Source: Yuukianura sp. NJ FZ-2021
Lineage: Eukaryota
NCBI GenBank assembly: GCA_046563655.1
Contig: CM102285.1
Span: 2,046,001-2,110,000, forward strand
Length of the DNA: 64,000 nt
Reading direction: 5' to 3'
Part shown: positions 8,800 through 64,000 of the stretch, in pieces
Layout of the letters: every line of letters begins with the position of its first letter
Numbering within the stretch: the first letter of the stretch is position 1
Notes under the pieces: generated by a model
What the model was told of the DNA's origin: nothing
Seen by the model: only the letters and a program-made list of their open reading frames with translations
The model's database searches: none
Program-made: the position numbers and the translations under genes

Positions 8800-8955
8800 G
8801 TCAGCAGTCAAAGGTCAGCAGTCAACTGTCAGCAGTCAAAGGTCAGCATTCAAGGGTCAGCATTCAAGGGTCAGCAGTCAAAGGTCATCAGTCAAAGGTC
8901 AACAGTTAAAGGTCAGCTTTAGAAGGTCACCTTTCAAACCTTTCAAAGGTCAGAA
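8800..8955 (+). repeat. Minisatellite with a ~14-bp unit (AAGGTCAGCAGTCA-like)
   Basis: Repeated ggtcagcagtca / aaggtcagcattca units. Confidence 0.8.
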
Positions 8956-10159: not shown

Positions 10160-11629
10160 CTACATTTCAATTACAGTTCGAATTGTTTCTCCTTTTTGTA
10201 GAAGGTCAAACCCTTCGTTGATTTTGTCCAGAGGCATTCGGTGCGTGATGAGTTTCTGCGCAGACTTGAGTCTTCCTTCATCAATTTCCTTGCAAATTAA
10301 TGCAATTCCATCAATCGGTTTGTATTTTCCAAAGTACCCGCCAGTTACCGTTTGACCAAGCAGCAAAGATTCAACAGGGAATGTGAGTTCGGTGCCTCTC
10401 GGGTTCATTCCGACGAGCACCAGAGTTCCCCAAGGAGCAAGTGACTTCTGCGCCTGCGCAGTGCAAACTGGAGCCCCCGAACACTCAAAAGCAAAGTCTA
10501 TTCCGCCTTGAGCTTTCAGTGTAGCCAGAATCTCCTCTTCTGATTGGTCACTCGTCGTGCTCAAAAAATCTGTAGCGCCAAGTTCTTCCGCCAGTTTTGC
10601 CTTGTGAGCATATCGATCAATTGCATAAATCTTGCCAGCTCCAGCCGCTTTGCAGCCGATGATTGTGCACAGTCCAACGGCTCCAAGGCCCCAAACTGCG
10701 CAGACGCTTCCTGGAGTCACCTTGGCAATGTTATTGGCCGAGCCATAGCCAGTTCCTATGCAACAACCAACCAACGCTGCGACATCTAGTGGAATTGAGT
10801 CGGGAATTTTGCAAACTTTTTCTTCATCGAGAATTGCATATTCTGCAAAAGTTGCTGTGCCGAGAGACGTCATGATTGGTGTATCGTCGTTAAGGAATTT
10901 GATTCTTGATGTTCCATCTTTTCGAAAAAGTTCTATTTCAAGATCGCATTTTTGGCAGACGTTGCTCATTGGTTTTTGGTTGCAGACAATGCAGTCGTTA
11001 CATTGGGGCATCCATTGCAAAATGACGTGATCTCCTGCTTTGACCTTTGACACGCCCTCTCCAACGGACTCCACGATTCCAGCACCTTCGTGTCCAAGGA
11101 TACTTGGAGAGGTCAACTTCTCAACGACTTTAATTCAAAAATTAATTCAAAATTAGTTCAAAATTTGTTTCGAAAATAAGATTTTTTTGGCAAGTGAGCG
11201 AGTGTATTTTAGAGATAAATTTTAGATAAAGTTTAGAGAGGTTAGTAAGTAAGAGAGTTTAGAAATTTTCGATGCGTTTTATAACAAATTTTAAGGGAAT
11301 TAAATTGTTAAGCACATTCGTCATCTTAAGATTGTTTTAGCAGTTTTGTTTGCATGAAAAGTTGATACACGTTGCGTATGTTTTTTAAAGGATTTTTTGA
11401 AACGCTAGTTGAAAGAAAAATAGTTTCGGAAGTGTAATTTTTTCTACAACTTACCATTTCCACCGACTTGAATGCCTTTAAGTGAATACAAATCGGAGTG
11501 ACACAAACCAGTCGCCTTGACCTTGACACGAACTTCTCCTGCTTTTGATGGTTCAAAGTTTACGTCAACAACTTTGAGCGGAGTGTTTGAAGTATACAAA
11601 ATTGCCGCTTTCCCTTGTATTGTCGTCAT
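10160..11629 (-). CDS. Zn-dependent alcohol dehydrogenase, copy 4 (most divergent); exons 11629-11455 and 11127-10160
   Basis: GLCHSD, LGHEG, PQCNDCIVC...C, GCC, GLGAVG; AAG acceptor keeps the frame. Confidence 0.93.
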
Positions 11630-29444: not shown

Positions 29445-29636
29445 GCCAGCTATTCAATGGGTTTTAATTTGTTTTGCGCAAGACGCAGTATGTGATTAAG
29501 TGTGCTGTAAGTGCTGCATAATACATAGGAGCAAAAACGCTCCTGACGCTCGAAATAAAATTTAATCTAATCCGATTGACGGAGTTATCTTCACAAAAAA
29601 TATCAGTTTGCTGTTTCAAATTTAATCTTTACTGCG

Positions 29637-44500: not shown

Positions 44501-45890
44501 CTCCGAAACTGTGGTTGCTGTGGGACTGAGTTGCATTTGTCTTGCCTCTCTTTCTGGAGTGTTGGATTGAGGTACTGGATCTGAGTTTCTTTCTTCACTG
44601 TCGCCGAGATCGATAACCTCAATTGCATCCGAGTTTATGGAAATTAAATCGTCTTCATTATTGGCCTCTACATCATCTGTAGTGTCCCCATCCAGATCCA
44701 CAAAAGGCTGTTTCTCCACAGCACTGGAAAACGAGCTTACCGTAGTAGTTGGGACAGACATGCGGAGCGGTCTTTGTCTCGATGGCCTTGTAGCTATATT
44801 CTCGTTGTTCTTTCTCGGGCTCCTTGATTTGGAACTTCTCATCTTCATGTTTTGACTTGGTGAATCTGGTTCAGATTGAACTGTCTCGATTCTCCTTGCC
44901 CGTTGCTCAGGTGAAGACCGACGAGGTTTAGCAGGCGATTGCACTGGTGAAGTGCAAGGCGCACTACTACCTATGACTTTCCACCCAGATTGAGCAGCAG
45001 CCTTTGGGGTTATTTGCTGTACATAAACGACGTCATTATCCACACCCCCTTCGTAGAATACTTCTGAAGCATTGTTTCGAGACATAGTACGGTTATCATC
45101 ACGATCCATCGGGAAAGAAAATACACCCTGAAAAAATAAGAATTTTGTAAGTGGCAATACTAAAGAATAAGTCTGAATTCAATTTTATGAACTCTTTACT
45201 CTGGTCTTACATCTTGGCGGTAATGTATGAGAACCGAGGCTTGAGTTGAATGGGCATCATTGAGTTGTAGTAGTTTGACTTCTTTACCAGACGAAGAAAC
45301 TAGAGTTTCCTTTCCACCCCACATTACCAAGTAGTCTCCAGGTTTGACATTTTGATGGAGAATGTGGGCGAGATCAGAGTTGGTTTCAACAATTATCTTT
45401 GGGATGGTATTAGTCAATCCCATTGTATCCGCACATGGTACTTCGGTAATACGTAGTAGAAGCTGAGCATGCTGAAAATCCATTTTGGTTACCCTCCCAA
45501 TAGTTACCTAGTGGCAGGCAAACAGTACAGTTTAAATGCCTTTCAACTCAAAGTAAAGATTCAGCCTAATCACAAACGTACGAATACCTTTTTAAAGTTG
45601 CGTGAATTCGGATTACGAAAACTGAAGTCACCCCATGCTCCAATCTTGAGCAGGAATAATCGAGCAAGGCCAAGCTGAGAGTATAGATGACACCCCGACT
45701 TCATGTGCTCGTCCAAGGCATCAAAAATGCCTTTACACCAAACTCGAAAAACACACCACTGTCCTCCGTTTCTGTTGCGGAGCGCCAATTCACCTGGCGC
45801 TCGGGTGGTGACATTGAAAAGATGACTGAGTGTTGATACACTGGACAGTGTATCGTCATCTTCTCCGTGATCGTGATCCCCGTTCATCAT
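41517..45890 (-). CDS. Large uncharacterised protein: putative N-terminal OB fold, long Ser-rich disordered region with SQ/TQ repeats, POT1-like OB fold, basic Ser/Lys/Arg tail (about 6 exons)
   Basis: ORFs 45570-45899, 45196-45483, 43076-45157, 42683-42967, 42585-42791 and 41517-42533 are joinable by GT-AG introns; motif FYLRVRDGTMPPF...IDIIV. Confidence 0.7.
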
Positions 45891-47425
45891 AGTAGACAAA
45901 GTTTGTTAAATGAACCGGTGAATGCAGGACAGGTCTTGCCGGTGGTATGCAATCTTTTATCCAACAACAATCTGTAAATAAAACGTAAACTTAATCAATT
46001 CAGCCCTTCAATTCCTGAACTAACAAAACAACAGTCACTAAATTGCTATTTTACCAAATTCCTAAAATCAAATCACAAACCACCATCTCACTTCGTCCAA
46101 ATGAATGAAAGAGGAAAATTCTGGTGTGACCATTCCACAGACATTGTGAAAAATCAGAAACGTGGTTGCAACGTGGCTTAACTACGCAGTTAGTTGAAGC
46201 TGTGCAATGCGGTGTCAAACTTGCCGGATTTGATCATCGAATTTAAACAGAATCTCAATTAGAATTGTACTTTTACAAAATCTGCAAGATAAACACAACG
46301 TCACAAAGTAGGGATCGCGCTGTTTGAATTATAAAACAGATTGTCTGAGTTGTCCGTGTTATCCGTGAAATAGTAGGGAGAAAAAAACACATGGGTTGAG
46401 TAAGCGGCGACGGCATCATTGTAACCACAACAATTCTAATCTTACAGTTGTGCGTTAAGTGGTAATCATCCGGCCGGCCGTTACGCAAGTTTATGCGTAA
46501 TGTAATGTAAGTCGCTTCTTTTGTTTAAAAAAACTTAACTGGCGTTACCTTTAGTTAAGTTTAGGTTAGCTTTTCCAATACCGTCTTAACAATAGGTTTC
46601 CGTTACTGATCATCAGGGTTGTCAAAAATGTGTGCTAAAAATTCCCAAAATATGGACAAGAATTAGGTATATGTTTTTAAAAAATCCTCCAATATTTACT
46701 CATTTAACATCAAACTTATGGGCATATAAATAAATATTTGCTAACAAAAACCCCGTAATATTTTTTTATTAACATTACGGACATGAAGCCTAAATATTTT
46801 TGACATCGCTGCTAACTATAGAACCAGGATGTCCTCACACCTTACAAAGAGCGTCTAAATACGGAAAACCGCAAACGTTCAACTCACTTACACACATTAA
46901 GAGAAACTTATGATGAAGGGCATAGGTCAAAGGCCGAGTACGTTTATCCTCCAGTTAACATAGGTTACGGCGGTACTTATCGAAACACCATGTCACACAC
47001 CTTACAGCGAAGAACGGAATCCGGAAAACCACAATCATTATTGTTATTACGATTAATTAAACCTAATAAGCGGCAGTGGAAAATGTTTCCGTCTAATTCA
47101 ATTTGGCAAATAAAGTGCACAAGGATGCAATTTTTTCCTAAAGTGTTTTTTTCTTGTTTTTAAGCAGTACGACGTTAGTATTTTAAATTTAAAACTTGTT
47201 CGACGGGTTTATAAGCAACCTGACCGACTGACAATGAAATCAAGCACATAACACCATCACTGAGTTCTTTGACGCAGGGTATATTGAGAATTGCAATTTT
47301 AAAGTTACACAGAAACTCTGTTGTTTTCGTTTGAGAATCATACGGCAGCTGATTTTTTCCGTTTTTCTGTTGTTTTTTTCTAAACTTACTTACAGTTTTT
47401 GAAAAGTAAATTAACATTAAAAAAA

Positions 47426-49768
47426 ATGGAATCAGATACAATTTTGAACGGGAAAAGAAATCTAATGGTTCAGGTAAAAACCCTTGTTGGATTGGGGCTA
47501 GTTGAGACTCTGGACTTTGCAGCAATGTCTTGCTTGGCGCCATTTTTTACGAAAGAGGCAGAACGCAAGGGGTTGAGTATCAGTGTGGCTGGAATCGTTT
47601 TTCTGGCGTCTCCTTTTGTGCAATTCATCGCATCACCGTTTTTGGGATCAGCGGTAATGTTGCGGAAATTTACGTACGGACGTCATTTCACAAAATTCCA
47701 TTTTTTTTTTCTTCCTTTTTTTTTAGATTTCGTATTTCGGTGCTCGAAAAACGTTTTTTCTCGGCGTTCTTCTCCTGGGATTTTCAAATTTCATGTTTGG
47801 ATTTTTAATTCCAATTCAGTCCGGTGCCATCTTTGCGTTTTGTTGCATTTTGTGCAGAGTGGTTGCAGGAATTGCGACAGTCGGAATATATACTAACGTC
47901 GTCTTTTTAGCAGAAACATTTCCTGGTGAAATCAACAAAGCTGTAGTAAAATTTCAAAATCAAAAAAAAAAAAATTTAAATAATTTTTTTGAATTCTAAC
48001 GTTGTTCGTTAATTTAGGGTTTTAATGAAATATTTGCTGGAGTCGGTACATCTGTTGGCCCGGTACTAGGCGGATTTTTGTATGATGTAAGTTTTAGGCA
48101 CAATCCTTGCCAGAGTGTTTTTCGCGCCAAAATTTGCTCTAAATTTGAAATTTCCACCAATTCTGAAATTCGGATATGAAATTACGCTGAAAATTACATG
48201 ATCTTTGTTTGTTTGTTTTTTCAATTTCAGTGGGGTGGATTTCCACTTCCATTTTGGACAATAGCGACTTCCGTGCTGTTCTTACTTCCAATTTGTGCTT
48301 GTTTATTACCAATAGTGGATTCTGATACACAAGAATTGGAAACAACTTCTGCACAGTGGTGGGAAATTATGAAATCTCCAGCAATATTTTTGAATTTGTG
48401 CGTAGGATTTGTTTTTGCTTGTGGATGGACTTTTATGGATCCAACACTAGAGCCTCATTTACGGCGGGTATATTTCAATTTTCACTCATTTTTTACTTAA
48501 TTCTTTTTACTCATTTTCTTTTTAAAAAGTGATTTTTTTTAACAAATAGGTGTACAAAGTGTCGTCGTCCACAACGGGAGGAATATTTTTGATAATGGCC
48601 ATTACATACACTGCATCGAGTGTTCTCGTGGGTGCAATTTCGGATTACGTAAAGCGTAAATGGATCTTTGTTTTGATTGGTTGCTGTGGTGCTGGATTGG
48701 CAATGCTATCTGTGGATCCTTCACTATTTGTTAATGATCATATGTAATACTTTATTGGACAAAAATTTTGGAAAGAGTTAACTTCTTCTGAAGTTTTTTG
48801 ATGCTACATTTCAAAATTTTTTAGGATGCTCTGGACAAAAGTGGTTGAGCTCGGGGCGTTTGGAATGTTCGCTGGCCTTGCCATGGTTCCATTGTATGGA
48901 CTGATGGTAGATGATGCAACGTGAGGTTTTTGAAGTCGCAAAATTTCCACAAACTTTTCTTTGAAATGTGATTTTTGACATAATTTTTTGAGTAAGTGCT
49001 AGGGGTTTTCCTCAGGACCAGGTCACATACGGTACGGTTGCTGGATTTTGGAATTCGGGTTATGCCATTGGGTAAATAACGTTTAAGCATTTACTTTTTT
49101 ATTTGTTTAGGCAAAGCTCAACTTTTTCGTTCAAATAGGCGGTTCCATTTAATTGTTCCGAATGAATTTCTCCGAACTGTATTGCTCTAAGGCATTGGCA
49201 CAGAAATCAATTTTTCCGAAAGTCAGATTGTCCCGAAAATAGTATTGAGCAATATGAGCAAATTGCCTCTCGGAGGAATTTACCTTTCGAAGGAAAAGGT
49301 TTCGCGGAAATTTAGTCGGAGAAATGGCGTTCTATCCAAATAGACACCTGATTTTAATGTACATTTTAGAGAAGTCGTTGGGCCGAGCTTTGGATCTATT
49401 GTTATGCAACATATTGGATTCAGCGCAGCTTCTACAATTATTTCAGGGTCACTCTTCCTATCCGTGAGTCTCGTTTTTATAGTCAATTTTTTTTTTCAAA
49501 AAAATCTTCGAAATGTTATTAATAGCTTAAGATTATTTTGGGATTTAAGTTAGTAACGTCAAACTTTCTTTTGTTCGTTTAGGCTAGCCTGTTCTGCATT
49601 TATTTTACATCTTCAGATCTGCAGAAAAGAACAAGATACGTGGCAATAGAATCGACCAATGATGAACCACCCAACATCCACCAAAATTTTACCGCAAGAT
49701 CGAAATCACCTTTGAGTGCAATTTTACATCACCCTGTACACTCACCTGGAAACATGCTCCAGAAGTAA
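47426..49768 (+). CDS. MFS transporter, SLC18B1-like, copy 1, multi-exon
   Basis: SCLAPFFTKEA, GPVLGGFLYD, WGGFPLPFW, FMDPTLEPHLR, EVVGPSFGS. Confidence 0.88.
49131..49340. mobile_element. Possible small foldback element in an intron of MFS copy 1
   Basis: tccgaa-type subrepeats on the left and tcgga/tcgcgga on the right; CAAATAG at both ends; intron longer than in paralogs. Confidence 0.35.
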
Positions 49769-50778
49769 CGGCATGTTCAAATGTCAATATGGAAATTAAG
49801 CGTTACCACAACCGCCGTTTTTCAAGTCCTACTTTTTCTGTTACGTTAGTCTAAAGTTTTTATTAAAATACGTTTGGAGCACTTTACAATTATTCTAGTT
49901 GAATGAGTTTTACAATACTGGTGTTTTGTATTAATTTGTGTTAATGCAATTTCATTGCCAAAGTTTGCATAAATCCAAGGCTGATAAACAAAGAAATACT
50001 TTTCTTTGACAGGTTAACTCAAGCAACTTAAGCTGGTTTTTCTAATTTGGAAACAAATTGGTTCCATTTTTTGGAGGATTTTTTTAATGATCGAGTCATT
50101 GCCTAACCTGTTAAAGGAAAACTCGTTGTCAAGACACCTTGGATAAATCTCTTGCTTAAAAAAAAGAAACTTCGGAACTTTTTAAGCGATATGTACTAAC
50201 TAAGTTTTCAATATTCACTCGGCAAGTAAATTATTTTGAAAGACAGTAAATTAGTATTATTGCCTGCGACAAACTCGTTTTTCATGGATTAAATTATAAA
50301 CCTGCGTAAGTGTTTTTCAAGATTAGCTGAGACATGAATTTTTTCAAATCGAGTTTTTCGCCAGTCTAATGACAAAGCCTTGAAAGTACTTTAATAAAAC
50401 GCTCCAGCATGAAAAACTGGTTTTCCAAAAACCAGTTTCAATTTTCCACGAGGTGGTGGAAGCTATATTACCGGCGGCAAACAAAAACAGCATTTGAACT
50501 GAATCTTCACACACCAAAGGACAAGGCCCAGCAACCGCACGACCGCTGGAGAAAGTTCAACTGCATAAAAATATTACTACAGTATTAAGGTAAAACACAA
50601 AAACAAATTTTTCAATAAATTATATTTAGCTATTCCTATGTTTAACGTGTTTTTATATATTTCAGATACAGTTTTTATTTTTTTTTTCTTATTTTATGTT
50701 TCACGTTTTTTTAAATATTTAAAATGTTCTTTTAGGAAACAATTTCCGCCATTTTCAACTCACTACAAACCAGTCATC

Positions 50779-53193
50779 ATGGAAGCAAAATCAACCGATC
50801 ACGCACTTTTTTCAAAGTCTACAGCCGAAAGCACTTGGCCACTTCCACGTTTCTACACTGAGTCATGGACTTTACCTCCTCCACTATTAGAAAACTCTAA
50901 TACGCATACTCGGTCCACCGACGCAGACAAATCTACGTGGTTAATTTTCACGCCGCGCACGACTCGAATTCTAGCTGAAACCGTTGGACAATGGCTCAAA
51001 AAAGAAATTGCAGCGGAAGTTGTAATGGTTGCAGCAGAAGCAAAAGCTAACTTCACATTGGTGGCAAGTGATGTGACCCTTGACCCTCAGGATTTGACCC
51101 ACCATGAACTTCTAGCAAAGGAGTTCCCTTCAAACGCAGGGGTCATTAGCCTATGGGGCGTTTGCGACGATGGAGACAATGTTGTGGGCTGTTTGCAAAA
51201 TAAGGACACGGGGAATCTGATCGGTGGATTTTTGAATACACTCAAATTCGTTTCTTCGTTCACAAAAACCAAGAAATTTATGGCTGTGACGAAGGGGTCC
51301 CATTGGGATGCAGGGGGACCCTTGGCCTCTAATTTCACCGCAGCTCTTCTCCAAGGGACACTTAAAGCCTTTGTCTCAGAATACCCTAATATAGACGTCA
51401 TTGGAGTAGACTTGGATCCAATTGAAACCTTGGACATTACTGCACTTGCGCAGCAAATAGTTTCTCAGCTTGGTTACGCCGGCGTAGAGCGGCAAATAGC
51501 GATTCGTCGAGGAGTGTCTTCATGCCCACGTTTAGTTCCGTTGGACGTGTCGTTCCCGCCACCGGAATTCAAAACTCCTTCGTTCCCATTTGCACTCAAG
51601 CCAGTTGGAGCTGGGAATCAAAAGTTGTACAAACCGGTACGGCTGATGCCAGTCGATTCGAACAAAACCGTTATCAAAGTTCACTCTATTTCACCAAATT
51701 TCTTAGAAGTTGCAATCCATCGTGAAACTCTCGGGCCGGAAACAGGTACATGCGGTTCTGATTTTGCCGGGATCATTGAAAAAACCGGAGTCGAATGTCG
51801 GTTTGCTCAGGGTGACCGTGTTTGCGGAGCGTTCCATCGATATGGCCTCATTGGAAACTATGTAACGTTGGATAACGCAGGATTTGTTTACAAGATTCCT
51901 TCTTGGATGAGCTACGACGAAGCTTCAACGCTGGGTATTCCACTTGGTACGGCCTACTTTGGTGTTTTTGTGGCGGGAAAACTAAAACAAGGTGACCATA
52001 TTTTGATTCACACTGCATCGGGCGGTTTCGGTCTCGCTGTCATGCAAATTGCAAAGCACGTTGGAGCTACTGTGTACGCTACTGCTGGAAGTGAAAAAAA
52101 GCGAAACTATTTGCGTGAAGTAGTTGGCGTCAAATATGTTTACAACTCACGTGACACAAATTTTGAGCGGGAAATTCTGGACCTGACTGGAGGTGAAGGG
52201 ATTGATCTCGTTGTGAATACAATTACATCAGAAGGCTTCAAAGAAGCCAGTTTGAACCTTGTAAGAAGAAATAGTGGCGGGAGATTTTTAGAAATGGGCA
52301 AAATTAATACTTGGACACACGAGGAAGTGCACAGGATAAGACCGGATGTGGAGTACAAAATCTACGATTTATATGCTGACCGCTACGCAGATACAACTCC
52401 GATTGAGCAATTGCTGCACTCTGGAGCTATTCGTGGAATGCCGTACAAACACAAGCCGATTGACCAATTGGCGTCAACTTTAAATGAATTTCGTGACAGC
52501 AAGCATATTGGCAAATTTGTGCTGCAAATGAGCCAAAAAGTGAGACTATTTCATGCTGAGAGTTCATACTTGGTCAGTGGAGCTCTAGACGACTTGGGAT
52601 TGGCTGTTGCTGGGTGGCTGCTGGAACAAGGAGCGGGAAAAATAATTTTGAACTCCCGGAGTGAGCCAAGCGATTCCGAAATTTTGAAAAAATTAGAGCA
52701 GTTTGGTGATTTGGTGGTCGTGATTTCAGCAGAAATCGATGAAAAGGAAGATGCTAAGCGTCTTTTTCAAAAAATTAAGAAGGAACTTCCTCCGCTCAAA
52801 GGCGTTTTCCATTTGGTGGGAATTTCTAAAAATCAACCCATCTCAGAATTGTGTTTGGACAATTTTGAGGAAACGTTGCATAGGAACGTAGACGGTACTT
52901 GGAATTTGCACAAAGAAAGTCTGACCTTTGACCTCGACCATTTTGTACTCATCAGCACCACAGCAAGGAACGCAGATTTTGCTGGCCAAGCAGACAACAG
53001 TGCGATTGCAAGTTTTCTGAATACTTTTGTCAAGTATCGTCAGCATCACTTAGGCCTTCCCGCAACTGGGATGAACTTTGAATCTGCCGCTGCGAAAAAT
53101 AGTCTCGACTCTGCCAGCTTATGCTGTAAAATGCATACACTTGAAAGAGTCATGCGCCTTGGTCGGAATCAAGCAGTAATCAGGGAAGGCTAA
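50779..53193 (+). CDS. Stand-alone type I PKS fragment (KR-structural/ER/KR), intronless CDS, copy 1
   Basis: ER motifs GSDFAG, LIHTASGGFGLA, YATAGS, GGRFLEMGK, HIGKFVL; KR-like LPPLKGVFHLVG, GTWNLH, LDHFVL; no KS, AT or ACP. Start placed at ATG 50779 after a likely 5'UTR intron. Confidence 0.88.
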   Translation: MEAKSTDHALFSKSTAESTWPLPRFYTESWTLPPPLLENSNTHTRSTDADKSTWLIFTPRTTRILAETVGQWLKKEIAAEVVMVAAEAKANFTLVASDVTLDPQDLTHHELLAKEFPSNAGVISLWGVCDDGDNVVGCLQNKDTGNLIGGFLNTLKFVSSFTKTKKFMAVTKGSHWDAGGPLASNFTAALLQGTLKAFVSEYPNIDVIGVDLDPIETLDITALAQQIVSQLGYAGVERQIAIRRGVSSCPRLVPLDVSFPPPEFKTPSFPFALKPVGAGNQKLYKPVRLMPVDSNKTVIKVHSISPNFLEVAIHRETLGPETGTCGSDFAGIIEKTGVECRFAQGDRVCGAFHRYGLIGNYVTLDNAGFVYKIPSWMSYDEASTLGIPLGTAYFGVFVAGKLKQGDHILIHTASGGFGLAVMQIAKHVGATVYATAGSEKKRNYLREVVGVKYVYNSRDTNFEREILDLTGGEGIDLVVNTITSEGFKEASLNLVRRNSGGRFLEMGKINTWTHEEVHRIRPDVEYKIYDLYADRYADTTPIEQLLHSGAIRGMPYKHKPIDQLASTLNEFRDSKHIGKFVLQMSQKVRLFHAESSYLVSGALDDLGLAVAGWLLEQGAGKIILNSRSEPSDSEILKKLEQFGDLVVVISAEIDEKEDAKRLFQKIKKELPPLKGVFHLVGISKNQPISELCLDNFEETLHRNVDGTWNLHKESLTFDLDHFVLISTTARNADFAGQADNSAIASFLNTFVKYRQHHLGLPATGMNFESAAAKNSLDSASLCCKMHTLERVMRLGRNQAVIREG

Positions 53194-53937
53194 CCTTATC
53201 TTTAGTGAGCATCTCAAAGATATGATCATATTTTACAGCAGTTCAGAAACAATAAACCAAAACAATGAATGATTTTGATGAAAAAAAATTGAAATTATGC
53301 AAAATTAATTTTTAACACAGTGGAAGGCACAGCAAAGTTTTCCAAACCTCCATGAAATTTACTATTTGCATCTTAACGACTTAATAATAGACTGTTTTAA
53401 AAAATCAAGTATTCAAGGTTTTTCAAATTCCTGCATCACTCGTTAAGACAAAAAAAATTAATTTGTCACAAGAAGTCTGACATTGCGTAGGTTGGTTGTA
53501 TTGCTTTTGAAGCAATGGCAATTATTTCGAAAGTTTCTATTTTTTTTAATGATTTCATGTTAATGCACGTTTTTTTTTAGCAAATATAGTCATCTGCTTC
53601 ATGAGACAAATTTCTACGAGACTCAATTAAATTACGAGGTCACACACTGCAGTTCCTGCATTTTTCCGGTTTTTTGATTGTGTTTTCAGATGGTAATACG
53701 ACTCTAGGCAAAGTAACCGCGAATTTGCCGTAATATTACAGGTTTGCTGAGGTAACAAAATTTAATCATCAATGTCTCTCTGAATTCCTCTGCCATGAAA
53801 AGGTGAAACCCAAAAAAAAATTGACAATCTTCGGTTAGGTGTGAAGCAAAGCTGCGTTGAGTAAGTCGCAGGCAAACGGAAAGAATTTATTAGTTGGCTA
53901 GATTTTGAAAAATAGTTCAATCTGACTTTGCAGAAGA

Positions 53938-56215
53938 ATGGAAACGGAGACAATTCATCGCCAAAAAGAAAACTTGATTTTGCAGGTGAAAACAATTGCA
54001 GGATTAGGGATGGTTGAGCTTTGTTACTTCGCGGCATTGTCTTGTTTGGCGCCATTTTTTACCAAAGAGGCAAAATTGAAAGGTGTGAACATCACCGTCT
54101 CTGGAATTGTTTTCATCGCATCTCCTTTGTTTTTGGTCATCACTTCTTGCTTTCTTGGCACAGCGGTAAGTAAACAATGGAAAATTATCGTTCCTTTGTG
54201 AGAATTTGTAATTTTTTCTTAATTCTTAGATTTTGTGGTTTGGTGCCCGGAGAGTATTTTTTGGAGGAATGCTGATCGTGGGATGTTCAAACATTTGTTT
54301 TGGATTTTTAAATCGAATTGAATCTACTACAGTGTTTGTCGTTTTGTGCATTTTATGCAGAGCAATTGCAGGATTTGGTTCTGTGGCAATTTGTGTCAAA
54401 GTCATTTTTCTTATGAAAGCGTTCCCTGATGATATTAACAAGGCTGTGGTAAAATCACATACTGTAAAAAAAAAACATTATTCTAATTTAGTTTAATTTC
54501 CGAGAAAAAATAATTCAGGGGTTGAGTGAAGCTGTTGCCGGGGCTGGACTTTCTTTGGGTCCAACAATCGGTGGAATTTTGTACGACGTAAGTTTAACAG
54601 CGTCAAAAAACGAAACTGCTTTCCTCATTTTCGAAAAAAAGAACCTTGGATATTTCACTACTCGTTCAGTTTTTTTTATCTTTTTAGTGGGGTGGATTTC
54701 CACTTCCGTTTTGGACCGTCGGAACTGTTGTCTTGTGCCTCATTCCAATCGGCGCTTATTTATTGCCACAAGTTGACTCTGAGTCGGACCAATCGAAACC
54801 AATTTCTGCTTCTGCGCATTGGCAGGAAATTATAAAATCTCCGACGATGTTTCTGAATATTTGGGTAGCATTTATTCTTGCCTGTGCGTGGACTTTTTTA
54901 GATCCAACTCTCGAGCCGCATCTTCGTCACGTAAATTATTTGACTTGGATTTTCCGGTATTATGCAAAATTAAATTGAAATGGAAATTCTATAATGTTGT
55001 TTCGACAGGAATTTGGAATAACGTCGTCTACAACAGGAGGAATATTTTTGATTATGGCCTTCTCCTACAGCCTGTCATGCATATTTCTCGGTTCGATTTC
55101 GCATCACGTAACACGAATGTGGATTTTTGTGTTTGCTGGTTTGTTGGGGTCAGGTTTGGCACTTTTGTCTGTGGATCCTTCCCTATTTGTCTATGACTAC
55201 AGGTAACTTTACCACACAAAAATTACCTAAATAGCAAAATTCGTGCTCAGCGAGCTAATTCGTGAATTTGAGTAAAGAATAATGGCGTCCATATTCCAGC
55301 TAACCAAGCTTTACCCGAAATTGTTGTAAATCATACACAAATTAGTTTGGATTTGTAGGCATCTTTGGACAAAATGCGTTGGGCTTGGGCTGTTCGGAGT
55401 ACTAGAAGGTTTTGCTTTTGTTCCACTTTATAGCCTGATGGTAGACGACTCAATGTGAGCTTTTCTTTTGAATATCCCGCCAAACTTTGCGTCAAAAGTG
55501 GTTGTTTTTTTTATTTTTAACAGCACGAGGGGCTTTCCTCAAAACAAAGTCACTTTTGGAACTCTGTCTGGATTTAGATATTCTGGCTACTCTTTAGGGT
55601 AACCATGCAAACAAATATTTTTTACTGAAATATGTACATGTATAAACGATAACTTGAATAAGCTTAAACTTGTGTTAAATATTAAATTTTGGTTTTTGTT
55701 TTAGAGAAGTCGTTGGACCCAGTCTTGGATCCGCTGTGATGCAGCACTTTGGGTTTCATACAGTTTGCACAATTATTGCAGCGACACTTTTCGTAACAGT
55801 AAGTTCTAGTAATGTTGTTTTCGTAACAGTAAGTTCTAGTAATGTTGTACAGTGTAGTTCAAATAGGATTGGACACAAACAAACTCAGAGTTTTTTTGAT
55901 TTTCATAATTGTGGGGAGTTATGCTGAGTCAAAAGTTGAAAGAAATCGATACAATGTTGATGCTTTGTACATAAGTTTCTCATTTTTGCATTCCCATCCA
56001 GACGAAATTACAAATTTTGACAAAAAATACCATGGAAACGGTTTTAGCATGTCTACTTTTCCGTGGACAACATGTATTTGATATATGTAAAAGTAGTATA
56101 TTCGTACATTTATTTTTTTAAACAGGGAGTCCTAGTTTGCTGTTACTTTACCTATGCGGAAGCAAGAAAAAGCAAAGACTACGCCTACCTAGAATCAACC
56201 AATATAGAACGTTAA
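53938..56215 (+). CDS. MFS transporter, SLC18B1-like, copy 2
   Basis: Same exon structure and motifs as copy 1. Confidence 0.88.
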
Positions 56216-57191
56216 GTAGCTAATTCCTTTGAAATAATTTTTAAAATATTTTAGTAACAACCCAAGTTAAAACCAAGTTAAAACCAAGTTACAACCATAT
56301 CTTATAAAAGTACGGAAATAAAGAAATAAAACGACAAAACATTAATCTATCTTTAAGTTTCATCCAAGTGTTTATAAATTAATGTTCAGATTTTGTGTAC
56401 TTTTCAAAATAAATAATTATTGACATCAAAAAAACTAAACATTCTTTAAAAAAGTTTCCTCGTTTACTTTTTAAACGATACGCTCCTTTTTTATGATTCA
56501 CTAAAAGCGAAATAATTCTGAAAAACATTAAAGTATTGTTGCCTGCGGCAGACTGGTTTTTTTTTCTACTTCAAAACTTGTTTAAAGCGACTGATTTAAA
56601 GCGTATTGTCTGCAGATAGGCCGACACATGAATTTTTCAAGTCCAGGTTTCCGTTTACTGCCTTAATGACCCAGCCTTGTAACTACTCTACAACGTTTCA
56701 GTTTAAAAAACTTGTTTTCAAAAACCTGTTCGAATTTTCCAAGTGGCGGTAGATGCTATTTTAGCGGCGAAACCTACTTCACTTCAAATTTCAGCTTTTT
56801 CAGCAAATCAGACCGCCTAACAACCACTTTCGCTGGTGAGTGGAGAAGCTCACCTGCATCAAAAACACCACAACACTAAAAGTAAAACACTAATAAAACG
56901 AATTTTACCTTAAACTATAGTTACCTTTTAACATTTTTTTCACATTGCCCACGTTAACTATGAATTGCTTCTAATTTAGAAGCAATTCTCCTTGAGAAGT
57001 TCTAAAGGGGAATTGCTTCTAAAAATTGGTGTGTCTAATGTGTTAAAGAATGGGGTTTTTTAAAAGTAATTTTTAGAAACTTCTCAGTTATAAGCAGTTC
57101 ATTTCAAACATCAGCAGGGAACTTTTTTAAGTCGTTAAAATTTTTTTTCATGAAACAGTTACCTTTACTGCCAGTTGGAAACGAAATAATC

Positions 57192-59597
57192 ATGATCGGA
57201 GCAAAATTCAACGCTGACACGTCTTCTTCAAAGTTTGCACCAGAAAGCACTACGCCGCCCCCAGGTATCTACACTGAGTCATGGATTTCATGTGTTCCAC
57301 TTACAGAAAAATTCGCTCATGCCGGTGCAGAAAGATCTACGTGGTTAATTTTCACGCCGCGCACAACTCGAATTCTAGCTGAAGCCGTTGGACAATGCCT
57401 CAAAAAAGAAATTGCCGTGGACGTTGTATCGGTTGTCGCAGAAGCAAAAGCTAACTTCATGTTAACTGCAAGTAATGTGACCCTTGACCCCCATGATTTG
57501 GCCCACCATCAACTTCTAGCCAAGGAATTCCCGACAATCGCAGGGGTCATAAGCCTATGGGGCCTTTGCCACAATGGAGACAATGTGGCGGGCTATTTCG
57601 AAAATGAAGCCACGAGGAATCTGGTTGGTGGATTTTTGAATACACTCAAATTTGTTACTTCCTTCACAAAAACCAAGAAATTTATGACTGTGACGAAGGG
57701 GGCCCTTTGGGGTGCAGGGGGGCCCTTGGCCTCTAATTTCACCGCAGCACTACTCCAAGGGACACTGAAAACGTTTGTAAAAGAATACCCCAATATAGAT
57801 GTCATTGGAGTAGACTTAGACCCGACTGAAACCTTGGACATTACTACGCTTGCGCAGCAAATAGTTTCTCAGCTTGGTTACGCCGGCAAAGAGCGGCAAA
57901 TTGCAATTCATCAAGGCCAGTCTTCATGCCCACGTTTAGTTCCGTTGGACGTGTCGTTCCCGCCACCGGAATTCAAAACTCCTTCGTTTCCATTTGCACT
58001 CAAGCCAGTTGGAGCTGGGAATCAAAAGTTGTACAAACCGGTACGGCTGATGCCGGTCGATCCGAACGAAACCGTTATCAAGGTTCATTCCATTTCACCC
58101 AACTTTTTGCAAGTTGCCATCCACCGTGAACTTCTCTCCCCGGAAACTGCAACTTCTGGTTGCGATTTTGCCGGAGTTATTGAAAAAGTTGGACCGGGAA
58201 GCCGGTTTGCTCAAGGTGACCGTGTTTGTGGAGCGTTCAATCGATTCCGGTTCATTGAAAATTATGTTACACTGAACAATGGAGTCTACATGTACCGGAT
58301 TCCTGATTGGATGAGCTACGACGAAGCTTCAACGCTCGGTATTCCACTTGGTACGGCCTACTTTGGTGTTTTTGTGGCGGGAAAACTGAAACAAGGTGAC
58401 CATATTTTGATTCACACTGCATCGGGGGGTTTCGGTCTCGCTGTGATTCAAATTGCAAAGCACGTTGGAGCTACTGTGTACGCCACTGCTGGAAGTGAAA
58501 AAAAGCGAAACTATTTGCGTGAAGTAGTTGGCGTCAAATATGTTTACAACTCGCGTGACACAAATTTTGAGCGGGAAATTTTGGAAGTGACTGGAGGTGA
58601 AGGGATTGACCTCGTTGTGAACACAATTACATCAGAAGGCTTCAAAGAAGCCAGTTTGAACCTTGTAAGAAGAAATAGTGGCGGCAGATTTTTAGAAATG
58701 AGCAAAATCAATACTTGGACCGTAGAGGAAGTACAAAGTCTCAGACCGGATGTGGAATACGCAATTTACGATTTACATGCTGACCGATTTGTAGATACAA
58801 GTCCAATTGAGGAGTTAGTAGCCGCTGGATTTGTTCGTGGAATGCCTTATCGGGTCAAGCCTATTGACCAATTGGCGGCAACTTTGAATGAATTCGGGGC
58901 CAGCAAGCATATTGGCAAATTTGTGCTGCAAATGAGCCCAAAAGTGAGACTGTTTCACGCTGAGAGTTCATACTTGGTCAGTAGAGCTCTAAATGACTTT
59001 GGATTGGCTGTTGCTGGGTGGCTGCTGGAACAAGGAGCGGGAAAAGTAATTTTGAGCTCCCACAGTGAGCCAAGCGATTCCGAAATTTTGAAAAAATTAG
59101 AGCAGTTTGGTGATTCTGTGGTCGTGATTTCAGCAGAAATCGGTGAAAAGGAAGATGCGAAGCGTCTTTTTCAAAAAATTAAGAACGAACTTCCGCCACT
59201 CAAAGGCGTTTTCCATTTGGTGGGAATTTCTAAAAATCAACCTATTTCTGAATTGTGTTTGGACAATTTTGAAGAAACGTTGCAGAGGAACGTAGCAACA
59301 ACTTGGAATTTACACAAAGAAACTTTGACCTCTGACCTTGACCACTTTGTACTCATCAGCTCCGCAGCAAGTAATGCAGATTTTGCCGACCAAGCAGCCA
59401 CCAGAGCCATTGCGAGTTTTCTGGATACTTTTGCCAAGTATCGTCAGCATCATCTAGGCCTTCCTGCAACTGTGGTGAGCTATGGATCTGCGACTGCACA
59501 AAATAGTCTCGACTCTGCCAGCCCATCATGGAAAATAAATGCCCTTGAAAGAGTCCTGCGCCTTGGTCTGAATCAGGCAATAGTTATGGAAGAGTAA
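57192..59597 (+). CDS. Stand-alone type I PKS fragment (KR-structural/ER/KR), intronless CDS, copy 2
   Basis: Close paralog of 50779-53193; start chosen by alignment (the ORF is open from 57150). Confidence 0.88.
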   Translation: MIGAKFNADTSSSKFAPESTTPPPGIYTESWISCVPLTEKFAHAGAERSTWLIFTPRTTRILAEAVGQCLKKEIAVDVVSVVAEAKANFMLTASNVTLDPHDLAHHQLLAKEFPTIAGVISLWGLCHNGDNVAGYFENEATRNLVGGFLNTLKFVTSFTKTKKFMTVTKGALWGAGGPLASNFTAALLQGTLKTFVKEYPNIDVIGVDLDPTETLDITTLAQQIVSQLGYAGKERQIAIHQGQSSCPRLVPLDVSFPPPEFKTPSFPFALKPVGAGNQKLYKPVRLMPVDPNETVIKVHSISPNFLQVAIHRELLSPETATSGCDFAGVIEKVGPGSRFAQGDRVCGAFNRFRFIENYVTLNNGVYMYRIPDWMSYDEASTLGIPLGTAYFGVFVAGKLKQGDHILIHTASGGFGLAVIQIAKHVGATVYATAGSEKKRNYLREVVGVKYVYNSRDTNFEREILEVTGGEGIDLVVNTITSEGFKEASLNLVRRNSGGRFLEMSKINTWTVEEVQSLRPDVEYAIYDLHADRFVDTSPIEELVAAGFVRGMPYRVKPIDQLAATLNEFGASKHIGKFVLQMSPKVRLFHAESSYLVSRALNDFGLAVAGWLLEQGAGKVILSSHSEPSDSEILKKLEQFGDSVVVISAEIGEKEDAKRLFQKIKNELPPLKGVFHLVGISKNQPISELCLDNFEETLQRNVATTWNLHKETLTSDLDHFVLISSAASNADFADQAATRAIASFLDTFAKYRQHHLGLPATVVSYGSATAQNSLDSASPSWKINALERVLRLGLNQAIVMEE

Positions 59598-60156
59598 AGT
59601 TATATATTCGTGGACTTTTAACTTGCCAAAGTTACGAACATATTTTAATGAAGTAAGAAAACAGGAAAACGAAACAATAATAAACTGGTTTCCAAAAACC
59701 AACGCTTCATGGTTTTTCAAACTCCAATACCACTTATTATAAACATAAGAACTTTAATGATAAACCAGAAAAGTCTTTTATAGTGTAGGTTGATTTGAAT
59801 ACTTTTGAATCAATCGGTATTGAATCCAAGCAATTGTTGAAGGATTTGAACAAAACCACAACATCATAAGTCATCGTGATACATGTATGCGGTCTGAAGT
59901 TCTACGTAAACTGTGTATACAATTACCTAAGTGAGATTTTAGGTAGAGTTGACGCAAGCGTTTTTATAAAAAAAAATTGTTAAAGAAAAAAAAAAGAAAC
60001 TGGTTTCCGTTTTCATTATTCAAAAACTGGTTTCTTGTAGCATATAGACTTGAGCCGTCAAAACCTTAAATTGAAGCTAAAACTCGAAAAAATAACTTTA
60101 GTACTTACCTTTGTGACTAATGCTTGGAATTTATATTTCTTTAGTTTAGATGAAGA

Positions 60157-62208
60157 ATGGAGTCTGTACCAATAACAAACAGAAGAGGAAAACTGAGTGT
60201 CCAAGTGAAAACGGTAATCGGAGTGGGGCTAGTTGAGATTCTATATTTTGTTTCCCACTCTTCGCTGGCGCCATTTTTTATAAAAGAGGCAGAATTCAAA
60301 AATGTGAATATCAGCGTCGCTGGAATTGTCTTCTTTGCTTCTCCTCTACTTCTAGTCATCACATCTCCATTTTTAGGCATAGCAGTAAGTCAGTCGCAAA
60401 TTATACTGCGCATGTGCAGAAAAGAACTAAACGCGGATAACTTAATTCCATTTTTCATTAGGTTTCGTGGATTGGTACACGGAAAATATTTTTCATGGGA
60501 ATGCTGCTACTTGGATTTTCGAACATTTGTTTTGGATTTTTGAATCGAATTGAATCTGGCGGCGCTTTTGTATTTTGGTGCTTTTTGTGTAGAGCAATTG
60601 CAGGAATTGGTACGACAGCGACGGCAATCAAGGTTATTTTTCTTGCCAGAGCTTTCCCTAATGAAATCAACAAAGCTATGGTAAAATTCAAAATTTTTAA
60701 AAAAGGATTTGGATATTTTTCACAAATTTTAAACTTTTCATAATTTATTGATGAATCATTTCAATTCCGATTTTTTTTAATTCAAGGGTTTGAGTGAAGT
60801 TTTCCCGGGGGTAGGAGTTTGTCTAGGGCCGGCAATAGGCGGCATCCTGTATGACGTAAGTTTTTAGCTCCAAAACTTCAATTTTCTTGATGAAACTTTT
60901 TTAACCAACGTAAAATTTGGAAATCTTGAACATTTGAACTCGTTTTTTATTCATCGTTAGTGGGGAGGATTTGGACTTCCGTTTTGGACAATCGGAACGA
61001 TTGTGTTGTGCCTCATTCCAATCAGTAATTGTTTACTGCCAGAAGTGGATTCAAACGCAAACGAGCTGAAAGATACTTTTGCATCTGCAAATTGGTGGGA
61101 AATTATGAACTCTCCAGGAATATTTTTGAATTTGTGGGTAGCCTCTATGTTTGGTTGTGCCTGGACATTTTTGGATCCAATATTAGAACCACACTTACGA
61201 CAGGTAAGTTTGAATTCTATTGGTTTTCGCGCCATTTTTGTAAAAAAAAATTGTATTTTCATAAAATTTGTGTTTGTTTTCTGTGATAGGGAGTTGGAGT
61301 GTCCTCATCTACCATTGGTGGAATATTTTTTGCAATGGCAATTTCATATACCGTGTCCAGTGTCCTTGTAGGTGCAATATCAGATCACGTAAAACAGACA
61401 TGGATCGTCATAGGTGTTGGATGTTATGGCTCCGGACTCGCAATTGTATCTGTCGACCCCACACTATTTGTGAATGATCACACGTAATTGCAAAAAAAAG
61501 AGAGCATTTTTTGGCAATTTATGTTGAAATTGTTTTCAAATCTGTCACAATATTTTTTGTGTAGGCAGCTTTGGGCAAAGGTGATTGGACTTGGGGTGTA
61601 TGGAATGTTCATAGCCGTTGCTCTTGTTCCGGTTTATGGAAACATGGTGAACGATGTAGCGTAAGGTTTACAAAATTTTGAAAGTCCCTCAAATTTTCTG
61701 TAACAAACAATGTTCATTTTGAATTTTGATCAGCGCCAGAGGTATTGTTCTAGACAATGTTACTTACGGAACGCTCTCAGGATTTTGGCTTTCTAGTTAC
61801 GCTATTGGGTAAACACGTATGCTCTATAATAAACACTTAATATAACGAAGTAGGTATGTCTGCATCTCAACTTAACTCAACTGTAGTTTAGTTTGTGTAA
61901 CTGCTAAATACAATATATTTGTACCGCTTATTTAAATAATATTTTAATATTGGCGAATACTTTTTTCTTTTTTTCTTAGAGAAATAGTTGGTCCAAGTTT
62001 TGGCTCGGTTGTGATGGAGCATTTTGGATTTGATGCAGCTTGTACAATTATGGCAGCATCGCTTTTCGTTTTAGTAGGTATCCTAACCTTAATTGTAATT
62101 AAACTAAATTAAAAACTAAATTTTCGTTATTTTTAACAGGGAACTATACTCTGCTGCTATTCTGTAACATCCGACGTAATGAAAAAGAAGGGATACATAT
62201 TTTACTAG
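60157..62208 (+). CDS. MFS transporter, SLC18B1-like, copy 3
   Basis: Same exon structure; FLDPILEPHLR; shorter C-terminal tail. Confidence 0.86.
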
Positions 62209-62246
62209 GATCAATGGGTGAAAGAAGGCAAGGTTTGTTGACTTTG

Positions 62247-62467
62247 ATTTTCTTTAACATGTTGGGTAGTACCTCACGTTTGTTTTTGACTTAGCAAAAA
62301 AAAAAGTTGTTTTCATTTCAATCGTAAACATAACAATATAGCCGAATTTATTAAATTTTGAATACGAATTGGTAGCAACTTTTCAGACAGGTACTAAAAT
62401 TGATACCAATTTTTTTTTTTCGTTTTTTTGTCAACAAGGGAGGTAGTACCCAACCTGTTAAAGAAAA
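62247..62467. repeat. Small inverted-repeat element downstream of MFS copy 3 (related sequence at ~50000-50120)
   Basis: TCTTTAACATGTTGGGTAGTACCTC vs GAGGTAGTACCCAACCTGTTAAAGA (25 bp, 2 mismatches). Confidence 0.5.
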
Positions 62468-63563
62468 TTAACTTTTCGTTGTCAAGGAACCTTGATAAAA
62501 CGGTAGAAAACTTTCTGAGGGGTTGAAAGAAAATGATTTCGAGTGAAATTATTTGGGTGAAAGCCACTTTTTCTTTCTCGGTTTTTGCATTCGTTTATAC
62601 AAAACCCACCAATATTTGTGTTCAAGGCGACACAAGGTTTCTAGCTGCTTTTGTGTCTTTCAACCGCCCCTCTCCTGGCACCATTTTACACAAAAGAGGC
62701 AGTATTTAAAAATGGGAATTTCAGTGTCGCTGAAACAGTTTTCTTTGCATCTTCTCTACTTCTACTCTAGTGAGAGAGTAGAATGTGAGAGCTGACTTTA
62801 ACATCAACAACTAGGTTAAAAAAAAGGAACTGTTAAAGTTCATCAAAATGAGAATTGTGATGGCGGTTTTTTTGTGGCGTCACCTCTGAGATAGCAGAAA
62901 GGCGAAAGAATTAACAAGAAGTAAGCTTGCAGACTAACGTAATATACGTGTGGCAGGACTTTGCCGAAGTGAGAGATAGCGGTTAGCCACATATTTGGCG
63001 TATTAACACCTAATAAGAATACATAAACTCTAAAGGATGAAGATTGAGAACATCTTTCCTAGTCAAAGTGTAAAACTAGACAACCAAAAATTAGATAAAA
63101 GTATTTCTCTAAGAAAGTGTTGGTAAATATGAAACGCCATTGATAATTTTCACGTCACGTTCACTATCACTACCTCTCAATTTGCCAAAAGTTAAAACTT
63201 TTGATGCTAGTAACAATCTTGTTTCAAAGTTTAGATATTTGTTACAAAACTGTGATACAAACAACCCCGGCCAAAAATTCAAGGTAAACTGTTAAAAATT
63301 AAGTAAAGATTTTATGTAAATCTAAAGAACGCATTGTTAACATAAGGAAAAATTGTAAAAAAAAAAACTAAGGCAAATAATAAAAAAAAACTTATCTCCG
63401 TTGGTATTTTTCAAAATTTTCGTTTCTTGTAGAATTAAGGCTAGACATTTGAAAACATAAATTTGCTGTTAAAACTCGATAAAGAGTTAGTACACAACAA
63501 TTTGTGACATCGGTTCACATGTGTCATAATTTTTGAATTTTCAGCTGTTTATTCAGATGAAGA

Positions 63564-64000
63564 ATGGAGTCTCTTACTATGTCTCCGTCAATTACAAACG
63601 GAAGAGGAAAACTGAGTGTTCAAGTCAAGACGATTGTTGGTCTGGGGCTAGTTGAGACTCTGTATTTCGCTGCCCTCTCTTGCCTGGCACCATTTTTCAC
63701 AAAAGAGGCAGAATTTAAAAATGTGAATATCAGCGTCGCTGGAATTGTCTTCTTTGCGTCTCCCCTATTTCTAGTCATCACATCTCCATTTCTGGGCAAA
63801 GCAGTAAGGCAGTCACTAAATATGCTACTAATGTGCAGACAAAAAAAAACTAAACGCGGAAAACTAAATTCTATTTTTTGTTAGGTTGCGTGGGTTGGTA
63901 CACGGAAAATATTTTTCATGGGAATGCTGCTACATGGATTTTCCAACATTTGTTTTGGATTTTTGAATCGAATTGATTCTGGTGGCGCTTTTGTGTGTTG
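63564..64000 (+). CDS. MFS transporter, SLC18B1-like, copy 4 (5' part only)
   Basis: LSVQVKTIVGLGLVETLYFAALSCLAPFFTKEA; exon 2 begins near 63884. Confidence 0.85.

Follow-up and report, generated by a model that had tools for sequence, protein, structure and literature searches.

In a 64,000-nucleotide stretch of the genome of Yuukianura sp. NJ FZ-2021 (GenBank assembly GCA_046563655.1, contig CM102285.1, positions 2,046,001 to 2,110,000 of the forward strand), referred to here as the window, two related genes, ERKR1 and ERKR2, encode proteins in which an enoyl reductase (ER) domain lies between the two halves of a ketoreductase (KR). Both genes are on the plus strand. The longest open reading frame (ORF) of ERKR1 spans 50638-53193 (851 amino acids, protein P0001) and that of ERKR2 spans 57150-59597 (815 amino acids, protein P0002). 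An ATG common to both copies, at 50779 in ERKR1 and 57192 in ERKR2, gives coding regions of 804 codons plus TAA (50779-53193) and 801 codons plus TAA (57192-59597). The two proteins are 79% identical (644/817), and the two genes are 85% identical at the DNA level across 2570 nucleotides, which is far above chance.

Pfam assigned to both proteins ADH_N and ADH_zinc_N, which correspond to an ER of the medium-chain dehydrogenase/reductase (MDR) type, followed by KR, with E-values in the two copies of 6.6e-37 and 1e-35 for KR and of 7e-18 and 3.6e-17 for ADH_zinc_N. An earlier note on this DNA had claimed that neither protein contains a ketosynthase (KS), acyltransferase (AT), dehydratase (DH) or acyl carrier protein (ACP) domain, and the Pfam scan bore this out, as KS, AT, DH and PP-binding were absent from both proteins at E <= 0.1. 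Thus, ERKR1 and ERKR2 are not complete type I polyketide synthases (PKS), in which KS, AT and ACP occur in one protein or gene. What they have is the reducing region of a type I PKS or fatty acid synthase (FAS), with the MDR-type ER placed between the structural KR subdomain (psiKR) and the catalytic KR subdomain. In ERKR1, psiKR together with the preceding DH-psiKR linker strand occupies 50848-51570, the ER occupies 51571-52536, and the catalytic KR half occupies 52537-53190. The corresponding segments of ERKR2 are 57261-57974, 57975-58940 and 58941-59594. The same note had presented an ER embedded in a KR as an oddity. Such an arrangement is the normal topology of fully reducing PKS and FAS, as seen in the structures 5bp4, 3slk and 8g7w, and what is unusual here is the free-standing unit with a dead KR.

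A search among proteins of similar length returned 50 matches, none of them above 37% identity. When longer proteins were searched, one close relative was found, P0053 (2129 amino acids), which matches 95% of the query at 50% identity and is a single-module type I PKS with the order KS-AT-DH-psiKR-ER-KR-ACP. An exhaustive scan with HMMER across 1.84 billion cluster representatives likewise gave P0053 as the sole close match (52%); the other 149 matches listed were at most 36% identical, except for one at 41% whose best stretch covered the KR only. The Atlas clusters nearest P0002 are dominated by bacteria. Residues 38-814 of P0002 align to residues 1194-1988 of P0053 with 50% identity (404/804), and the homology of ERKR1 likewise begins at about residue 1194. 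From the span of this alignment, the DH-psiKR linker is where the window proteins begin, and they run to the last KR element, just short of the ACP linker. P0053 has the same unusual GGFG loop in the ER and several lineage markers in common with the window pair, and it differs from the pair in its additional KS, AT, DH and ACP domains and in a KR that is canonical throughout (GGLGGIG, K, Y, N).

P0053 is encoded by an intronless ORF of 6.4 kb with a GC content of 49% in a metagenome locus, L001. The DNA on the 3' side of this gene has a GC content of 35-41% and carries an intron-bearing gene of the major facilitator superfamily (MFS), so the context of P0053 is eukaryote-like. This MFS gene (8325-9008 of L001, plus strand, Pfam MFS_1, E 7e-10) lies on the same strand as P0053 and is without detectable similarity to the MFS genes that flank ERKR1 and ERKR2. 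A PKS-MFS cassette shared between L001 and the window was considered and rejected, since tblastx of the tail of L001 against the window returned nothing at E 1e-3 and the MFS exon of L001 had no window match below E 1.6. The layout in which a PKS gene stands beside a transporter gene may have arisen twice.

The fold of the window proteins agrees with their sequence relationships. Sequence matches in the Protein Data Bank were led by the modifying region of a MAS-like PKS (5bp4, E 3.7e-57) and the spinosyn KR-ER didomain (3slk, E 8.1e-55). An AlphaFold2 model of P0002, built from a 40-row alignment, had a mean pLDDT of 83.9 and a pTM of 0.72, with disorder in residues 1-34 only. The N-terminal 230 residues of P0002 align with psiKR of P0053 and 3slk, and in the model the psiKR of ERKR2 begins with a strand at 39-47 followed by alternating helices and strands, mostly at pLDDT above 85, which we read as a Rossmann-like fold. 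The best Foldseek matches of the model were 5bp4, 9d30, 8g7w and 3slk, of which 3slk is the KR-ER of module 2 of the spinosyn PKS and the other three are DH-ER-KR regions of a MAS-like PKS, of MAS and of a modular PKS, respectively. These structures have the same fold and domain order as the window proteins (sequence E 3.7e-57 to 2.9e-53, Foldseek E 2.7e-52 to 3.4e-45). They are, however, pieces of complete synthases with active KRs, whereas the window unit appears to be a naturally free-standing product with a dead KR.

To score conservation, 336 ER-KR segments of relatives, drawn from the proteins that the above searches had returned, were aligned to the query by phmmer, and columns conserved at 85% or more were considered. 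In the KR, both window copies retained 25 of the 42 conserved columns, compared with 38 of 42 in P0053. The motifs quoted in the earlier note were all found as written: LIHTASGGFG in the ER of both copies, and in the KR LVSGALDDLG and GQADNSAIAS in ERKR1 and LVSRALNDFG and DQAATRAIAS in ERKR2. The degenerate KR motifs fall on the Gly-rich loop, where Gly is 93-100% conserved, and on the Tyr and Asn columns (Asn 99%). In place of TGGxGxxG the loop reads SGALDDLG in ERKR1 and SRALNDFG in ERKR2, so that G613 and G615 are lost in both copies and G612 in copy 2 only. The NADPH-contacting R638 is replaced by His in copy 2 only, D663 by Glu in both copies, and the D696 column is also lost (Asn in ERKR2). 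At the catalytic Lys column (K714, 99% conserved) both copies have Asn. Y751 is Asn in copy 1 and Thr in copy 2, N755 is Ala in both, and the catalytic Ser is kept in copy 2 and replaced by Thr in copy 1. Neither the NADPH loop with its Arg and Asp nor the Lys/Ser/Tyr/Asn set of an active PKS ketoreductase of the short-chain dehydrogenase/reductase type is thus present in full. The claim that the KR is catalytically dead holds on these losses of the NADPH loop and of the catalytic Lys, Tyr and Asn, and we regard the KR half of both proteins, judged from its residues, as dead.

Relative-rate counts are consistent with this decay. With all six outgroups, KR changes found in one lineage alone were more numerous in the window lineage than in P0053 (25 v 15 and 29 v 12 being two examples), with p 0.008 for 29 v 12 and p 0.056-0.14 for the other five outgroups. 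Of 337 ER-KR segments of relatives, no more than 2 lacked the Lys, Tyr and Asn of the KR and had an intact ER motif set. The bacterial proteins P0189 (residues 5897-6511) and P0130 (residues 53-736) have this combination in common with the window pair; they differ in that the segments belong to larger PKS proteins (6774 and 1513 amino acids) and are only about 28-29% identical to the window proteins. As a separate observation, the KR Tyr column (751) is occupied by His, with Lys and Asn kept, in 86 of the 337 segments (for example P0004, ...GQSNHASAN...), which reflects either a sizeable His-variant subgroup of KRs or a register shift of one residue.

In the ER, both window copies retained 42 of the 55 conserved columns, the same number as P0053. 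The residues G426, G427, G429, K452, S468, R469, E516, K519, D541 and K590 are intact. Within the motif HxAxGGVGxAAxQ, H422, G426, G427, G429 and Q434 are kept, as are K452 and the Ser-Arg phosphate site (S468, R469); V428 is replaced by Phe, a change common to P0053, and A432, in a 99% conserved column, is replaced by Val in the window proteins only. K519 and D541 of both copies align with a Lys and an Asp that are 22 residues apart in 3slk, and we take them to be the proposed proton-donor pair of the ER. Both copies therefore have the candidate Lys and Asp. For FAS, one report names the homologous Lys1771 and Asp1797 as proton donors (PMC4394236), and another names a Lys as the general acid (PMC5331325). 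Relative-rate counts of the ER against P0053 were balanced with five of the six outgroups. The earlier note had called the nucleotide-binding motif of the ER essentially canonical. The GGxG loop and K519/D541 are kept, but the ER is not faultless: positions 321, 397 and 432 deviate, with Gln, Gly and Val in ERKR2, and position 432 lies within that motif. It appears that the ER is largely intact.

To place the pair among its relatives, an unrooted tree was built with IQ-TREE (LG+G4, SH-aLRT support only) from 74 rows, most of them without an organism name, comprising the two window copies, the 45 segments with the highest scores, taken one per protein, and all rows with an organism name, other segments being left out. 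The window pair, P0053, P0197 and all six springtail PKS rows fell in one clade of 22 rows (support 98), and all named bacterial rows fell outside it. This hints, as a lead only, that the source of the pair may be a PKS family already resident in animals. The earlier note had suggested excision from a modular PKS; the nearest relative, P0053, is a single module of 2129 amino acids and not a multimodular assembly line, which argues against that part of the suggestion.

The two copies were then compared for signs of selection. The ratio of nonsynonymous to synonymous substitution rates (dN/dS) between them was 0.39 overall, 0.24 in the ER, 0.39 in the KR and 0.55 in psiKR, with the strongest constraint in the NADPH-binding block (residues 421-480, dN/dS 0.18). 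In each domain dN was below dS (Fisher p 6e-15 overall, 8e-14 for the ER, 3e-4 for the KR and 0.008 for psiKR), whereas the leader before the homology to P0053 had a dN/dS of about 1.1. The numbers of changes unique to each copy were similar (30 v 23, p 0.34). When copy 2 was subjected to random substitution in a neutral simulation, 4 of 500 runs retained an open frame at 5% change per lineage and none of 500 did so at 7.5%, 10% or 15%, and the alignable flanks of the two copies differ by about 31%. Gap openings numbered 4 in the 2407 nucleotides of the ORF, compared with 14 in 330 nucleotides and 4 in 147 nucleotides of flank. The GC content at third codon positions of the pair (0.41-0.42) is like that of neighbouring host genes (0.35-0.46), and intergenic GC is 0.32-0.33. 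Taken together, the open frames, the dN/dS values, the simulations, the few gaps and the third-position GC content indicate that the frames are under selection and that the genes are long resident in this genome. As is expected of expressed protein-coding genes, both are open frames under purifying selection, and the neutral evolution that the earlier note had named as the outcome that would speak against its idea is not supported by the values for the ER (0.24) and the KR (0.39).

ERKR1 and ERKR2 alternate with MFS-type transporter genes, the order being MFS1, ERKR1, MFS2, ERKR2, MFS3 and the start of MFS4, all on the plus strand. MFS1 (47426-49768) is a complete intron-bearing gene of about nine exons whose own stop lies 1011 nucleotides upstream of the ERKR1 ATG. 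Its paralogue MFS2 (53938-56215) lies between the two ERKR genes and ends in its own stop 977 nucleotides upstream of the ERKR2 ATG. MFS3 (60157-62208) follows ERKR2 and has no ERKR copy after it, and a fourth paralogue, MFS4, starts at 63588 and is cut by the window end at 64000. The MFS paralogues are 57-62% identical in amino acid sequence, with dN/dS of 0.24-0.30 and dS of about 1.0, compared with a dS of 0.30 for the ERKR pair. From this difference in dS, some 3.2 kb of DNA (50320-53516 and 56614-59814) was copied or converted after the transporter array had formed. In the same array, a fragment resembling MFS exon 1 is found at about 62670-62770, between MFS3 and MFS4.

Both copies have possible signals for an independent transcript. 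A block upstream of ERKR1 (50320-50589), about 68% identical between the copies, is a putative promoter and exon of the 5' untranslated region (5'UTR), with a GT donor at 50590; the matching block of ERKR2, recognised by its similarity, lies at 56614-56881. In both copies a donor-like GTAAAA (at 50590 and 56882) is followed by a T-rich tract ending in AG (at 50735 and 57158), which would delimit putative 5'UTR introns, matched by consensus, of 146 nucleotides in ERKR1 (50590-50735, GTAAAA ... TTTTAG) and 277 nucleotides in ERKR2 (56882-57158), the latter containing a copy-specific insert of 93 nucleotides. Because the upstream sequence of ERKR1 has an in-frame stop at 50495-50497 and no later ATG, the upstream exon would be 5'UTR, and an N-terminal extension of the protein through the 50590 donor is ruled out. 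The acceptor at 50735 could equally take a trans-spliced leader. After the stop codons, AATAAA occurs at 53251-53256 in ERKR1 (58 nucleotides past the stop) and at 59679-59684 in ERKR2 (82 nucleotides past the stop). The 93-nucleotide insert of ERKR2 contains a hairpin (56975-57023) with arms of 24 nucleotides, 92% complementary, and a loop of one nucleotide, which may be the footprint of a small mobile element. Capture by a transposon was considered for the pair and rejected, as no terminal inverted repeats surround both copies; a single pair of 17 nucleotides, 88% complementary, occurs at copy 1 alone. Rfam gave no match in 46000-64000.

We tentatively propose that ERKR1 and ERKR2 are intact, independent genes for PKS-derived NADPH-dependent enoyl reductases that act in trans, with the dead KR body serving as a docking surface. 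The source would have been a single-module type I PKS without introns, such as P0053, whose internal psiKR-ER-KR part became a separate gene; this gene would later have been copied to give ERKR1 and ERKR2, each presumably transcribed independently. The KR half would have lost NADPH binding and catalysis and persisted as the structural body under the ER, as in reducing PKS and FAS, leaving the ER as the sole domain that could still bind NADPH. Since the chain contains no working KR and no DH, KS or ACP, the enoyl substrate, if the ER is catalytic, must come from elsewhere, and the ER would most likely reduce alpha,beta-unsaturated acyl thioesters attached to the ACP of another PKS or FAS. The psiKR and inactive KR (KR0) body would be kept partly as support for the fold of the ER, and possibly also as a surface for docking. 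A more specific version, in which an animal has turned the psiKR-ER-KR core of a resident PKS, within a cluster-like locus rich in transporter genes, into a duplicated free-standing trans-acting ER whose dead KR docks on a partner synthase and which thereby sets the reduction of the product, is conceivable but in our judgement doubtful.

Several observations weigh against the proposal of trans-acting reductases. Three window-specific changes fall on highly conserved columns of the ER, namely D321 (99% conserved) to Glu in copy 1 and Gln in copy 2, P397 (90%) to Gly and A432 (99%) to Val. In our own reading A432 closes the GxGxxA dinucleotide fingerprint, and its replacement could therefore weaken the binding of NADPH. 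In the ER, the substrate loop (323-336) departs from the family consensus, although P0053 also differs there and most of the differences are common to both. The overall dN/dS of 0.39 reflects moderate constraint only, and the splice and poly(A) signals are matches to consensus sequences, found in DNA that is AT-rich. There is no partner PKS or FAS within the 64-kb window: tblastn with full-length P0053 found only the two ER-KR units and no KS, AT, DH or ACP, the other six matches being at E >= 3. Finally, the known trans-acting ERs of the LovC type are bare MDR proteins, and we know of no direct precedent for the psiKR-ER-KR0 form.

The same intact ER and the same evidence of selection would also hold if the proteins were soluble NADPH-dependent ene, enone or quinone reductases that need no carrier protein and that detoxify or tailor a metabolite moved by the MFS neighbours, with the KR body as a scaffold. 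The MDR sequence matches include the quinone oxidoreductase 1yb5 (E 2.5e-25) and the 2-haloacrylate reductase 1wly (E 6.6e-21). The alternation with transporter genes that are themselves under purifying selection fits such a role, as do an array of Zn-dependent alcohol dehydrogenase genes and cytochrome P450 exons elsewhere in the window, these families being typical of xenobiotic or secondary metabolism. The divergent loop 323-336 would suit a change of substrate, but the complete PKS P0053 has most of the same differences. Moreover, about 480 residues of psiKR and KR are not evidently needed by a soluble reductase and yet are constrained (p 0.008 and 3e-4, respectively), and the nearest relatives are all carrier-dependent ERs of PKS. 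We consider a soluble reductase unlikely. Somewhat lower still we place the possibility that the proteins are inert, the ER too having lost its function through the changes at 321, 397 and 432, either as a scaffold or regulator or as slowly decaying young pseudogenes partly homogenised by gene conversion. The three lineage-specific ER substitutions at columns conserved at 90-99% agree with it, the column of D321 even differing between the copies, which suggests relaxed constraint there; the dN/dS values overall and in psiKR (0.55) are fairly relaxed, and the dS of 0.30 beside MFS genes with a dS of about 1.0 fits later copying or gene conversion. Against this, each domain shows a dN significantly lower than its dS and the NADPH block is the most constrained part, both frames of 2.4 kb are open when no neutral run at 7.5% change per lineage or more kept its frame, and gap openings are few in the ORF compared with the flanks. 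In addition, the changes unique to each copy are balanced, the ER shows no faster change than that of P0053, and gene conversion alone does not maintain an open frame.

It is highly improbable that the two ORFs are 3' exons of a larger transcript, which would be either a PKS with KS-AT-DH exons beyond the window or a read-through or fusion product of the upstream MFS gene. The frame is indeed open for 14 codons between the acceptor-like AG (50734-35 and 57157-58) and the common ATG, which leaves room for a coding exon joined on by splicing, and the upstream MFS genes share the strand at a distance of about 1 kb. However, the 50 kb upstream contain no coding sequence for KS, AT or DH, and an intron reaching past them would have to cross many unrelated genes, while the closest PKS gene, that of P0053, is intronless. 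The MFS genes all end in stops of their own, whose position within the tail varies from copy to copy, and for this reason we also rejected an MFS-ERKR fusion as the principal explanation. The exon ending at the 50590 donor holds the in-frame stop at 50495-97 with no ATG afterwards, the leader before the ATG has a dN/dS of about 1.1, and both ORFs stop at the KR boundary and are then followed by AATAAA.

The proposal of a trans-acting reductase has a parallel in fungi. TerB, described as a collaborating PKS-like enzyme, is a fungal truncated highly reducing PKS (hr-PKS) with the domains DH0-CMeT0-KR that is reported to reduce, in trans, intermediates bound to the non-reducing PKS TerA, and the dead DH of TerB is required for productive interaction with TerA (PMC8251887). 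As in TerB so described, the window pair consists of a PKS reduced to part of its reducing region, without KS, AT or ACP, and with one live reductive domain beside inactive sister domains, the ER being predicted to be live from its motifs. The two differ in that the live domain of TerB is a KR, whereas that of the window pair would be the ER with the KR dead, and in that TerB is fungal and has a known partner, whereas the window pair comes from what is probably an animal host. LovC is an NADPH-dependent ER that acts in trans for a fungal hr-PKS and is reported to attach to the side of the MAT domain of LovB (PMC7870829). The window proteins would have in common with it a separate NADPH-dependent ER of MDR fold that serves a PKS in trans. 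They carry, however, about 480 extra residues of psiKR and dead KR, and they belong to the lineage of in-line PKS ERs. LovC itself is a bare MDR protein without KR halves. The window pair does not match the LovC type, defined as a bare MDR protein beside an hr-PKS with an inactive ER, because the KR halves are present and the window has no PKS.

The principle of a truncated PKS as a helper is therefore already known; no description of a free-standing psiKR-ER-KR0 protein was found in the titles and abstracts of the literature searched, which does not prove that none has been published. If the more specific version of our proposal, with docking on a partner synthase in an animal, is correct, ERKR1 and ERKR2 would be the ER counterpart of TerB, the sole characterised truncated-PKS helper found, which supplies a KR and not an ER, and would be the first trans-acting ER of psiKR-ER-KR0 build in any organism. 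Such a helper would represent a second route to a trans-acting ER, in which an in-line ER is cut out together with its structural cradle. Trans-acting reductases determine where along a polyketide reduction takes place and are useful tools for the re-programming of synthases, and the window pair would offer a soluble ER unit of the in-line lineage that is ready for use. It would also bear on how the parts of megasynthases are broken up and reused in animals that hold PKS, and is an indication that this genome has a PKS pathway with its transporters. In bdelloid rotifers, one report describes horizontally acquired clusters of PKS and nonribosomal peptide synthetase (NRPS) genes that are flanked by multiple genes for MFS and ATP-binding cassette (ABC) transporters and by P450 (PMC11258130), and their transporter and P450 layout resembles that of the window.

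The remainder of the window carries genes of several other families. Their spliceosomal introns and, as the main sign, the exon of a Cys-loop channel among them make an invertebrate animal the plausible host. At its start (1-11134, minus strand) are at least four tandem Zn-dependent alcohol dehydrogenase genes that are very alike, with large exons at 1-1020, 2959-3957, 5178-6212 and 10160-11134 and a small first exon at 7318-7686. The Atlas clusters nearest one of these copies are mostly bacterial, and the array may be of foreign origin. An exon on the plus strand at 25028-25483 matches Pfam p450 (E 9.4e-7), and another at 21562-22077, also on the plus strand, is similar to it by eye and has no Pfam match, which suggests a small tandem P450 pair. 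On the minus strand, two long low-complexity ORFs rich in Ser, Glu and Lys (41517-45178; 355 and 700 amino acids) match no Pfam family. A single-exon DUF4246 gene lies at 27110-29453 on the minus strand (Pfam E 5e-108); its best homologues are at most 46% identical and come from rotifers, early-diverging fungi, a fly and Streptomyces, a patchy occurrence that is a hint of horizontal transfer. On the plus strand at 31647-33021 is an intron-split gene for a Cys-loop ligand-gated channel, in which a Neur_chan_LBD exon (31 bits, cut-off 26) is followed by weak Neur_chan_memb exons.

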